Virus record (IMG/VR): IMGVR_UViG_3300013581_000001
Length of the DNA stretch: 42,492 nucleotides
Direction: 5' to 3' (one strand)
Origin: a virus
Each line of letters begins with the position of its first letter. Position 1 is the stretch's first letter. The notes beneath the pieces were generated by a model that was not told the DNA's origin, made no database searches, and saw nothing but the letters and a program-made list of their open reading frames with translations. Shown here piece by piece: positions 37,852-40,284 of the stretch. Position numbers and translations under genes: made by a program.

Positions 37852-37914
37852 ATTATTTACATTTACCAAACCAGAAACATTCCCAAAAACTTGCACCTAA
37901 AAATAATCCGAACA
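37852..37914 (-). CDS. 20-aa hydrophobic/aromatic peptide MFGLFLGASFWECFWFGKCK with a strong ribosome-binding site
   Basis: Not in the track. AAGGAGGTGA lies 6 nt upstream of the ATG at 37914. It sits immediately after the XhlA-like stop (37931). Confidence 0.3.
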
Positions 37915-37930
37915 TGGTAACTCACCTCCT

Positions 37931-38230
37931 TTAAACACCGAAAAACATTCTTAATACTGCTACGATTAAAGAACCAGCTATAGTGCCAACCAATCCTAAA
38001 ACCCACATTTTAATGTCTTTGATGTTTTTTTGATTTTCTTTTTTGTTTTGAGATTCTAATTCTCTCTCTCTGTTGATAGAGTCCAAAGTGAAATTCATTT
38101 TTTGATTAATCAAATTTTGATTGTGTTGTCCGTCTTTTATCTGTTCCAAAGAGTTGAAGATTTTTTCGTCGTTATCTTCCAATCTTTTTATACGTCTTTC
38201 GTAATCCCCTCTTTGGCTACTTTCTGTCAT
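37931..38230 (-). CDS. XhlA-like membrane protein (coiled coil plus C-terminal transmembrane segment)
   Basis: 99 aa from the ATG at 38230 (GTAGGTG ribosome-binding site). The track's 38263 start is a GTG. C-terminal transmembrane segment MWVLGLVGTIAGSLIVAVLRMFFGV. Synteny with the PBSX xkdX-xhlA genes. Confidence 0.5.
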   Translation of the reverse strand: MTESSQRGDYERRIKRLEDNDEKIFNSLEQIKDGQHNQNLINQKMNFTLDSINRERELESQNKKENQKNIKDIKMWVLGLVGTIAGSLIVAVLRMFFGV

Positions 38231-38266
38231 ATAAACACCTACTTCACTTAAAATAAAAACCACAAG

Positions 38267-38407
38267 CTATTTAACTTGTGGTTCGTAATCTTTACCTGTA
38301 GTTTCTTTAAATTGTTCCGGAGTAATCCAACCAACTCTAACAAACTTTTTGAAAGTTTCGTCAGTGTATAATTTTTTCTTATATAAATCGATTACTACTT
38401 TATCCAT
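38267..38407 (-). CDS. XkdX-family small phage protein (46 aa)
   Basis: Not in the track. MDKVVIDLYKKKLYTDETFKKFVRVGWITPEQFKETTGKDYEPQVK. The ..GWITPEQFKETTGKDY.. motif matches the XkdX family. Confidence 0.5.
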   Translation of the reverse strand: MDKVVIDLYKKKLYTDETFKKFVRVGWITPEQFKETTGKDYEPQVK

Positions 38408-38408
38408 A

Positions 38409-38747
38409 TTACGCTTCCCCCAATTTTTGATTTGCTTGTTCTTCAGTTATTAGTGCGATGTTCTGCTTCAAACTCATAACTTCTTCTTGTAAATCGACAA
38501 CTAAGCTAGTTAATTTAGCTATAGCAATATCTTTGTCATCAACAGGAATTTCTACTTCAGGCAACATCTTTTCTAGCTCATCTTGGGTTTGTCCAACCCA
38601 TTGTTTACCGTCATAATAGCAAGGTAAGATAATACCTTGAGGAGGTTGGTTCTCTGTCCATTTTTCATCAGGATAAACATATTCATCTTCTTCGTTTTTG
38701 TGAACAATAATTGCTTGTCCATTTTTCCATAAATAAACTACTTTCAT
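38409..38747 (-). CDS. XkdW-like small tail-associated protein (112 aa from M8)
   Basis: The second ATG has a GGAG ribosome-binding site and lies 4 nt after the upstream stop. Position is between the fibre gene and the XkdX gene. Confidence 0.4.
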   Translation of the reverse strand: MKVVYLWKNGQAIIVHKNEEDEYVYPDEKWTENQPPQGIILPCYYDGKQWVGQTQDELEKMLPEVEIPVDDKDIAIAKLTSLVVDLQEEVMSLKQNIALITEEQANQKLGEA

Positions 38748-38751
38748 TTCA

Positions 38752-40284
38752 TCACTCCGTCCATTCATATTGACCGTAAATATAATCTGTATCAGTCCAC
38801 GCTGATGGATCTACAGTAGCGTCAAAATTCACTGTTCCTGATGTGTTCAACGAAATACGTCCGCTGTTTTTGTTTCTAGGTGCACTTATTGAGAAAAACA
38901 TTAAGTTTTTGACGAATTCTTTAGGTAAAAGTGCAATAGTCTGTCCATGTTTGATAGTTGTAGCATTAATGCGTAACATTTTCTTAGTAACTCCATTCTG
39001 TGTGATTGTTCTGTACGCACTAGTAAATCCACCTTTGGAAACTAAGTCGTTATGAGGCGACGCACTGTTCACTAGTTGTAAATCAATCCAACCAGTATCT
39101 ACAACATCTGAACCAACACGTTCCCATTTGCTCCAACTCTTATAAAATCTTTTTTGGTAGATTACAGTTGAATTGTAAGGTTGGTATTGTATTAGAACAG
39201 CATCTCCATTTCTTTTGTACTTTGTTAACCACCCATTATTATTTGTTCCAGCTGGATTGTTCAAAGTAAGAACAACATATCTAGTTCCTATCGGTAAAGA
39301 CATTAATTGTTCGTTATTGTCGAAATCTATTTGTAGGTTGGCATCATAAAAATTAGTACCATCATCATTTGTTAATTTAAATTTTTGCCAATCCTTTTCT
39401 GTAAACTTACTTTCTACATATTCAGGAGTAGTAAAGCCATCTCTTTCAAGGGTTTCATTAAATATTTGTAGCTTTTCATCAATTGTTGTGTTAGCTTGAT
39501 TAACATTTGAATTAAAAGCGTCCACATTGCTATCATAAGTTTTTTGGAATGTATCTGAAGCTAAATCATAATCCGTTTTGATAGCGTCACGTTTAGCATC
39601 AATTTGTCTTAAAGCTTCTTCTCTCTCTAGGTCAATGCTTTGGTTAGACGATATTAACGCGTCTGTAATTGAAACAATAGCGTCTGCTTGAGCCTTGTTT
39701 ATTTTAATGAGGTATTCTTCAGCTGTTTGCTTAATAGATTCAATCAACGTTTGTGTATCGCCTATATCTTGCTTAAGTTGTTGCACTTTCTTTTCTAATT
39801 CCGAACGCAATTCATCAAACATTCGAATATAAGATACTTTGATATCACTTTCGATTTGATTGATAAGACTGTCGCGTACCGTGAATTTAAAAGTGCCTAA
39901 CACAACAGTGTCGTCTTTTCCTACGTTGTTTACATCGTTGAGTGATAAGTAAATTTCACCCAACACTTCAGAATCGACAACGTTTTTCAGAAACCATTGA
40001 GGTACCGTAACACCTATTAATCCTTTCATTGGATCAATGAATTCTACGTCTAATACACCTGATGTACTAGGTCGTTTTTCTTCTGTTCCGTTCGCAGCTT
40101 TAAAGAAAGCATAACCTTTAACATTCTTATCGCTGATTAACAAAGGTTTGTTGTCTTTTTGTACTACAAATTGAAATTTAGCAGTGTTTTTATCGAGATT
40201 ATAAAAACCGATACCTCTATTAGATATCGGTTGTAAATATGGTTCTTCGTTTAAATCAAGTTTACCTACTTTTTCTAATTCCAT
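38752..40284 (-). CDS. Baseplate upper / tail fibre protein (BppU-like N-terminus, central coiled coil, C-terminal receptor-binding domain)
   Basis: 510 aa. The start codon overlaps the upstream stop (TAATG). Long coiled-coil middle section. Confidence 0.5.
   Translation of the reverse strand: MELEKVGKLDLNEEPYLQPISNRGIGFYNLDKNTAKFQFVVQKDNKPLLISDKNVKGYAFFKAANGTEEKRPSTSGVLDVEFIDPMKGLIGVTVPQWFLKNVVDSEVLGEIYLSLNDVNNVGKDDTVVLGTFKFTVRDSLINQIESDIKVSYIRMFDELRSELEKKVQQLKQDIGDTQTLIESIKQTAEEYLIKINKAQADAIVSITDALISSNQSIDLEREEALRQIDAKRDAIKTDYDLASDTFQKTYDSNVDAFNSNVNQANTTIDEKLQIFNETLERDGFTTPEYVESKFTEKDWQKFKLTNDDGTNFYDANLQIDFDNNEQLMSLPIGTRYVVLTLNNPAGTNNNGWLTKYKRNGDAVLIQYQPYNSTVIYQKRFYKSWSKWERVGSDVVDTGWIDLQLVNSASPHNDLVSKGGFTSAYRTITQNGVTKKMLRINATTIKHGQTIALLPKEFVKNLMFFSISAPRNKNSGRISLNTSGTVNFDATVDPSAWTDTDYIYGQYEWTE

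Follow-up and report, generated by a model that had tools for sequence, protein, structure and literature searches.

In SPP1 and PBSX, the single-transmembrane (TM) protein XhlA/gp24.1 and the two-TM holin XhlB/gp26 are each reported to be apparently harmless singly and lethal jointly (PMC6316719). In Staphylococcus aureus HG001, where translation starts were mapped in a study published in Nat Commun in February 2026 (PMC13009471), two short open reading frames (ORFs), sORF15 (MLKGILGYSFWACFWFGKCK) in Φ11 and sORF16 in Φ12, are listed as upstream ORFs (uORFs) of the lysis module. Both gave initiation peaks in retapamulin ribosome profiling (Ribo-Ret) and were scored as strong toeprints, and a luciferase fusion to sORF16 was among those tried for in vivo translation. 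The authors suggested a cis-regulatory role, and conservation was given as BLAST hits in staphylococcal phages. Here we analyzed a 42,492-nucleotide (nt) stretch of viral DNA (IMG/VR record IMGVR_UViG_3300013581_000001), referred to in its full length as the window, in which a 20-codon mini-ORF lies between the gene for a DUF2951 protein and an intrinsic terminator. Judged by comparison of the loci described below, a DUF2951 gene, an ORF of 17-25 codons and an intrinsic terminator form a three-part cassette in temperate siphoviruses of Staphylococcaceae. What is new relative to PMC13009471 is the wide distribution of the ORF, the purifying selection on its peptide, its strict coupling to DUF2951 and its usual position directly ahead of the holin gene.

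A short gene between DUF2951 and a terminator

The cassette of the window consists of the following features; every gene considered in this work lies on the minus strand.

37931-38230, minus strand: DUF2951 protein, 99 amino acids (aa) (PF11166, E=1.4e-32; phrog_276; 'holin regulator' in the MW364974 annotation)
37922-37931, minus strand: extended Shine-Dalgarno sequence AAGGAGGTGA (read from the sequence; kept in relatives)
37853-37915, minus strand: 20-codon mini-ORF MFGLFLGASFWECFWFGKCK (conservation, motif, ratio of nonsynonymous to synonymous polymorphism [pN/pS], translated orthologues)
37820-37843, minus strand: intrinsic terminator with a 10-bp stem, a 4-nt loop and a T-run (terminator scan)

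Read along the minus strand, the junction is ...GGT GTT TAA AGGAGGTGAGTTACC ATG TTC ... TGT AAA TAA. The 10-nt Shine-Dalgarno sequence shares nucleotides with the DUF2951 stop codon, and 6 nt separate its end from the mini-ORF ATG. Consistent with the near-perfect Shine-Dalgarno sequence reported in the initial annotation of this DNA, AAGGAGGTGA occurs a single time in the 42.5-kb window, followed there by ATG, where 0.03-0.08 occurrences are expected by chance. An in-frame TGA just 5′ limits the mini-ORF to 20 codons, and the terminator begins 9 nt past its stop; the initial annotation had placed the terminator ahead of the ORF, but the actual order is DUF2951, mini-ORF, terminator. A read-through fusion of DUF2951 and the mini-ORF was ruled out, as two in-frame stops lie between them and the two frames are offset differently in phages of S. 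aureus.

With its aromatic two-cysteine tail, an overlapping Shine-Dalgarno sequence and a terminator no more than 13 nt downstream, the window ORF is, as far as these sequence features define the family, the S. epidermidis phage orthologue of the sORF15/sORF16 microproteins. It has the same length of 20 codons, and its peptide shares 70% of residues with the form in Φ11/80α. The tail FWxCFWFGKCK is common to the window peptide and sORF15, whereas the N-terminal half differs (MFGLFLGA in the window, MLKGILGY in the Φ11/80α form). The extended GGAGGUGA(U) Shine-Dalgarno sequence is identical in sORF15, sORF16 and the window, and the two S. aureus ORFs are placed as in the window, right after DUF2951 and right before the terminator. 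As listed, HG001 sORF16 of Φ12 ends in ...CFWFSKCK, with Ser for Gly; phiSLT and all loci examined have Gly. Of the tests proposed in the initial annotation, that of translation has an experimental answer in the initiation shown for the Φ11 and Φ12 orthologues (PMC13009471); the window copy, as their orthologue, is probably translated as well.

The mini-ORF is annotated in almost no phage record. When eight variants of the peptide were looked up for identity in ~15 billion proteins, the sole match was ORF65 of phage phiJB, a hypothetical protein, and searches of PHROGs and NCBIfam with the peptide matched nothing. Hence the earlier statement that the peptide had escaped annotation holds for nearly all records but not for phiJB. 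A full-text literature search for the motif FWFGKCK found nothing, the orthologues being found in supplement tables only, and the peptide was absent from the proteogenomics supplements of S. aureus Newman.

To survey the distribution of the mini-ORF, 65 IMG/VR loci were retrieved via the DUF2951 protein alone, and the ORF was found directly downstream in every locus uncut by a contig end. By count, 93/96 loci gave a match to the motif and, in a second DUF2951 set, 79 of 80 had the ORF, the exception being a truncated contig; no DUF2951-anchored locus uncut by a contig end was without it. A second IMG/VR scan, with the DUF2951 profile, recovered the same close relatives and no more distant taxa. 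Among GenBank phages, tblastn detected the 20-aa peptide in 354 records and DUF2951 in 351, with matching host breakdowns. When single genomes representing each species were scanned with a degenerate DNA pattern, matches came from over a dozen species of Staphylococcus and from Salinicoccus, and the GenBank phage search contributed Mammaliicoccus phages. Five scan matches outside Staphylococcaceae, which had no plausible start with a ribosome-binding site and following terminator, were judged to be due to chance.

Across these loci the ORF comprises 17-25 codons, with an N-terminal part that is variable yet largely hydrophobic and a C-terminal tail, [FLI]WxC[FY]WFGxCK, that is almost fixed. 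The start, the ribosome-binding site and the stop (TAA or TAG) are kept across three genera. Two loci have GTG in place of ATG behind an intact GAGGAGGTGA, the frame staying open, and several lineages carry one extra residue past the motif (...CKR*). A hairpin was found in 58/58 distinct contexts, 2-13 nt past the mini-ORF stop and mostly at 7-9 nt. The initial annotation had named a lack of conservation of the ORF and its ribosome-binding site as a refutation; both are kept in all related phages examined, as are the stop and the terminator behind it. Between the window and 80α, identity reaches 70% for the peptide, 47% for DUF2951, 51% for the tail-associated hydrolase Hyd and 14-23% for the neighboring small proteins and fibers, so that no other product of the module is as well conserved as the peptide in this comparison.

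Because the pattern of the degenerate DNA scan imposed the motif, selection statistics were recomputed on the DUF2951-retrieved loci. On these, pN/pS was 0.18 for a 14-codon core of the mini-ORF and 0.09 for its last 11 codons; the C-terminal 40 codons of DUF2951 in the same loci gave 0.35. In a first, mixed locus set, the in-frame value was 0.22 and those of the other two frames were 1.75 and 0.75. All four codons of the invariant Gly are in use, as are both codons each of Phe, Cys and Lys. It is well supported that the mini-ORF is a genuine gene, almost always missed by annotation, which was the core guess of the initial annotation, and that selection acts at the amino-acid level. Together with the strict linkage to DUF2951 and the translated orthologues, these results show that a real gene occupies this position.

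The chance that the frame is open by accident, or that it marks an element acting at the nucleotide level (an RNA motif, for instance, or a piece of the terminator) with no coding selection, is negligible: although the ORF has just 20 codons, is unannotated in nearly all records and is absent from protein-family libraries (PHROGs, NCBIfam), its in-frame substitutions are distributed as in coding DNA, its start, ribosome-binding site and stop persist across three genera, and the published ribosome profiling of translated orthologues (PMC13009471) refutes this explanation along with the conservation pattern.

Gene order around the cassette

In most relatives the cassette directly precedes the holin and endolysin genes. 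The order DUF2951, ORF, terminator, holin, endolysin was found in phiSLT (Triavirus), QT1 (Fibralongavirus), Mammaliicoccus phage phi127 and Salinicoccus, as well as in many prophages of coagulase-negative staphylococci, and in relatives with this order the holin starts ~50-65 nt past the ORF stop. The link to lysis is accordingly stronger than the initial annotation could know. In Dubowvirus, Phietavirus and Rockefellervirus, a hydrolase/fiber block lies between the cassette and the holin (3.2 kb in the window). The remaining features of the window are as follows.

38752-40284, minus strand: lower tail fiber FibL with a BppU_N domain (PF10651, E=1.8e-9; FibL in the MW364974 annotation)
38409-38768, minus strand: small protein, 112 or 119 aa (phrog_1766 'tail fiber protein', E=1e-30)
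38267-38407, minus strand: XkdX-family protein, 46 aa, carrying GWITPEQFKETTGKDY (PF09693; phrog_134)
38257-38284, minus strand: terminator-like hairpin across the XkdX stop, just 5′ of the DUF2951 gene (terminator scan)
35897-37792, minus strand: tail-associated cell-wall hydrolase Hyd, CHAP plus glucosaminidase (PF05257 and PF01832; Hyd in MW364974)
35334-35843, minus strand: FibU, 169 aa
34807-35334, minus strand: unnamed ORF, 175 aa
34780-34802, minus strand: second terminator, directly 5′ of the holin gene, without a mini-ORF ahead (terminator scan)
34485-34757, minus strand: holin of the SPP1 gp26/PBSX XhlB family (PF04688, E=3e-17)
33103-34485, minus strand: endolysin, annotated as N-acetylmuramoyl-L-alanine amidase (ORF; MW364974 annotation)

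In order of transcription, the genes and signals are FibL, the small protein, XkdX, DUF2951, the mini-ORF, the terminator, Hyd, FibU, the unnamed ORF, the second terminator, the holin and the endolysin. FibL is the final large structural gene ahead of the small-gene module, and Hyd is the gene immediately downstream of the cassette. The holin and endolysin genes lie 3.2 kb past the stop of the 99-aa DUF2951 gene, in agreement with the earlier statement that the true holin and endolysin are found some 3 kb further on. Over the region studied, the window is 99.9% identical to the S. epidermidis phages CNPH82, CNPx, phiIPLA7 and vB_SepS_27/456/459 (genus Rockefellervirus) and, by this measure, is itself an S. 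epidermidis Rockefellervirus.

The gene that follows the cassette varies among relatives: a hydrolase, a FibU-like gene or a holin, the holins falling into three Pfam families that are unrelated to one another (Holin_SPP1, Phage_holin_1 and Phage_holin_5_1). In the window and in 80α, the holin gene has its own terminator, ahead of which there is no mini-ORF. The varied downstream genes and the holin terminators without an ORF indicate that the ORF travels with DUF2951 and not with the holin, and the arrangement in the window and 80α suggests that the Hyd/FibU block, which carries a terminator of its own, entered the region separating cassette and holin by insertion.

Two side observations concern the distribution of the module. 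In phiIPLA5-type phages (phiIPLA5, PG-2021_91), it was matched in two pieces covering just 62% of the query, with an 'exonuclease' annotated beneath, which points to an insertion or replacement within the small-gene module. Positions 1-3235 of NZ_JBHLXP010000009.1, from the gammaproteobacterial assembly of Rheinheimera tilapiae KCTC 23315, are 95.5% identical to positions 35838-39067 of the window, the mini-ORF included; this contig is probably Staphylococcus contamination of the assembly.

The DUF2951 assignment is clear (PF11166, 112.2 bits with the gathering threshold at 26.7; positions 6-98 of the 98 in the model are aligned). The 99-aa protein has an N-terminal coiled-coil region and one C-terminal TM segment with the hydrophobic end MWVLGLVGTIAGSLIVAVLRMFFGV; in DUF2951 homologues a TM segment is noted at 76-98. 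This architecture resembles that of XhlA and SPP1 gp24.1: an N-terminal coiled coil, one TM segment at the extreme C terminus and, in relatives, an adjacent two-TM holin gene. By contrast, the XhlA model PF10779 scored the window protein at 18.5 bits (E=0.0023), below its cut-off of 34.7. Two relatives, aligned to the model in an identical register, also stayed under threshold with 19.9 and 24.3 bits; SPP1 gp24.1 gave 53 bits. An hhalign comparison of DUF2951 with gp24.1, limited by a shallow query profile and a single-sequence target, returned 4.6% probability and aligned the TM segment only, and a profile search of the PDB with DUF2951 gave coiled-coil noise only. Given the sub-threshold scores and the TM-only alignment, the resemblance between DUF2951 and XhlA is architectural and positional. 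The 'XhlA-like' label of the initial annotation is thus apt for the coiled coil and the single C-terminal TM segment but weak as a statement of family membership.

Upstream of DUF2951, the 46-aa protein was correctly recognized earlier as XkdX-family (PF09693, 46.7 bits with the gathering threshold at 23.5; positions 7-40 of the 40 in the model are aligned); its score for TIGR01669 was under the cut-off. The hairpin at 38257-38284 has a 12-bp stem followed by a T-run and spans the XkdX TAG stop, so that it and the terminator at 37820-37843 flank the pair of DUF2951 and the mini-ORF. Comparable hairpins occur at the XkdX/DUF2951 junction of Φ11 and phiSLT. In the window phage (37931-38407), only one TAG stands between XkdX and a DUF2951 frame that is extended to a GTG and shares its phase, and some metagenome gene calls therefore fuse both into a 158-aa protein. 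Since this frame relation is absent in phiJB and 80α, the fusion is probably a gene-calling artefact.

The ORF at 38409-38768 has a likely start at 38747, giving 112 rather than 119 aa, and occupies the place of XkdW in the PBSX gene order. Apart from this positional match, the 'XkdW-like' identity proposed for it is not supported: no match was obtained in Pfam even at E<=10, XkdW membership was negative in NCBIfam, a PDB sequence search matched nothing, and Foldseek found nothing significant in the PDB for a low-confidence AlphaFold2 model (predicted local distance difference test [pLDDT] 69; a small beta domain and a long helix). An NCBI record labeled 'MAG: hypothetical protein [Escherichia coli]' is a partial homologue of this staphylococcal phage protein, and its label is likely a binning or contamination error.

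Function of the peptide

Seven of the 20 residues of the window peptide are aromatic and its grand average of hydropathy (GRAVY) is 0.76. The earlier description of an extremely hydrophobic and aromatic peptide is borne out for aromaticity, but its hydrophobicity is moderate. Within the family, peptides of 17-25 residues have 5-8 aromatic residues, GRAVY values of 0.1-0.95 and Wimley-White interfacial free energies of -2.7 to -8.6 kcal/mol. No full-length TM helix, as a holin would possess, was found in the mini-ORF product, the longest uncharged stretch in these 17-25 residues being ~11-14. This chemistry fits a location at the membrane interface better than a TM helix.

We favor, at roughly even odds, a reading in which the free peptide is the functional product and acts with DUF2951 at the membrane as a lysis accessory. 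The peptide would be translated from the late mRNA that also encodes DUF2951; once released by the ribosome, it would partition into the interface of the cytoplasmic membrane and, with the tail-anchored DUF2951 protein, might serve as an accessory of holin-mediated lysis. The terminator would step down read-through into the next genes, which are the holin and endolysin genes in most relatives and the tail hydrolase gene in the window. This mechanism is modeled on the XhlA/gp24.1 and holin pair of SPP1 and PBSX (PMC6316719). A free peptide is favored because selection acts on residues rather than codons, because the ...CKR* variants, which move the motif relative to the catalytic center of the ribosome, persist, because the distance from stop to hairpin ranges from 2 to 13 nt, because no alternative RNA structure was found and because the linkage is with DUF2951. 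That the peptide sits at the membrane, partners DUF2951 and takes part in lysis is inferred. The more specific proposal that the peptide is a third component of staphylococcal phage lysis, triggering or timing the holin together with DUF2951, is more tentative, and we regard it as possible but somewhat doubtful.

Several points weigh against a lysis accessory. Homology between DUF2951 and XhlA is not established, the Pfam scores being sub-threshold and the hhalign probability, with its shallow query and single-sequence target, low; a lysis role for DUF2951 would therefore rest on its architecture, its position and an annotator's label. At 17-25 residues and with the GRAVY values given above, the peptide is too short and too polar for a classical TM helix. 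SPP1 has no such ORF beside gene 24.1, so an XhlA-type system does not need one. Lastly, the conservation of the C terminus and the constant terminator also fit a cis-acting nascent peptide.

A cis-acting role, which is the one suggested by the authors of PMC13009471, is accordingly the first alternative to consider, although we judge it unlikely. The ORF would be a leader or arrest peptide, whose translation or nascent chain modulates the terminator or the expression of the next gene and so sets the amount of holin or hydrolase mRNA, the released peptide being functionless. Several features agree with this proposal. The terminator always follows 2-13 nt past the stop, mostly at 7-9 nt, so near that a terminating ribosome could contact the foot of the hairpin; the last 11 residues are the most conserved and the N terminus is variable, as in known arrest peptides; a chain of 17-25 residues stays in the exit tunnel until release; and the holin is usually the next gene downstream. 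Like the trp leader, TnaC, the S. aureus ilv leader and rbfL, the locus has a tiny, Trp-codon-rich ORF with a strong ribosome-binding site, immediately before an intrinsic terminator and the gene that would be regulated. An Rfam scan gave no family at threshold; the Trp_leader model matched positions 37815-37874 (minus strand), spanning the Trp-rich end of the ORF and the terminator, at a sub-threshold 20.8 bits (threshold 41; E=0.15).

Other observations are at odds with regulation in cis. In an RNAalifold analysis of 17 diverse sequences, the terminator hairpin, with compensatory changes in 6/10 pairs, was the sole conserved structure, and no conserved antiterminator or alternative structure was found, unlike in the leader-peptide attenuators. 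A fold across the ORF predicted from a single sequence (z = -2.7) was not conserved and was discarded as a reading at the RNA level. The stop-to-hairpin spacing varies, and the ...CKR* lineages move the motif by one position from the peptidyl-transferase center, so that, in contrast to leader-peptide systems, the register to the stop codon is not fixed. Purifying selection extends over the entire C-terminal sequence, beyond the few sensor codons of an attenuator. The ORF also stays with DUF2951, whereas the holins of the window and 80α keep a terminator without an ORF. Finally, transcription in Firmicutes reportedly outpaces the ribosomes, which makes coupling between ribosome and terminator less likely and counts against regulation in cis.

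Less probable still is a free peptide with a role outside lysis, either as an aid to tail-fiber or baseplate assembly or as an antimicrobial-like peptide released at lysis. The ORF lies at the end of the tail-fiber accessory module, its partition energy at the interface is strongly favorable, and it has a C-terminal Cys-X4-Lys/X-Cys heptad behind a hydrophobic N terminus. This heptad presumably resembles that of the Rana-box frog antimicrobial peptides (ranalexin, brevinin-1), which we take to be of similar length. We likewise take type I toxins (Ibs, PepA1) and the Rana-box peptides to share with the family a length of 17-25 residues, a hydrophobic or aromatic character, a cationic end and a Cys-X5-Cys spacing, and presumably to differ from the window peptide, which has no sequence homology to them, no antisense RNA partner and no export signal, lies in a phage late operon and is too short for a full TM helix. 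Against a role outside lysis, however, the linkage is with the membrane protein DUF2951 and not with XkdX or the fiber genes: QT1, phi127 and one further locus keep DUF2951 and the ORF without XkdX upstream. Moreover, there is no signal peptide and there are no export genes.

Implications and comparison with PBSX and SPP1

Hundreds of sequenced phages and prophages of staphylococci carry a gene that nearly all annotations lack, including those of the model phages Φ11, 80α and phiSLT and of phages that move virulence and resistance genes. Since its product is the most conserved of the module and its ribosome-binding site the strongest in the genome, the phage invests in this peptide. Lysis by Staphylococcus phages is poorly understood beyond the holin and endolysin, and the position ahead of the holin in most lineages makes the ORF a concrete and easily mutated candidate for the timing or execution of lysis. 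The comparative data also sharpen the observation made in PMC13009471, as they indicate that the amino-acid sequence matters beyond the act of translation and that the peptide is tied to DUF2951; both points can guide the choice of mutants. If the peptide were a third lysis component, nearly all temperate staphylococcal siphoviruses would possess it while almost all of their annotations omit it, and an aromatic two-cysteine peptide of ~20 residues at the membrane interface would be among the smallest lysis-cassette products known to us.

Compared with the xkdX-xhlA-xhlB-xlyA cluster of PBSX and gp24.1/gp25/gp26 of SPP1, the window differs in several respects. Its DUF2951 protein reaches the XhlA model only below threshold and aligns with gp24.1 over the TM segment only, no XkdW homologue was found in the window, and a terminator and the 3.2-kb hydrolase/fiber block part its cassette from the holin gene. 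In SPP1, genes 24.1 and 25 are just 20 nt apart, which leaves no room for a mini-ORF. The analogy with PBSX drawn in the initial annotation is unsupported for XkdW; for three other elements, namely XkdX, the coiled-coil protein with its tail anchor and the holin of XhlB/SPP1 type, it is a reasonable one. As in PBSX and SPP1, the window has an XkdX gene, a coiled-coil protein with one C-terminal TM segment, a Holin_SPP1 (XhlB/gp26) holin and an amidase, and in the relatives of the window the tail-anchored protein is encoded right before the holin.

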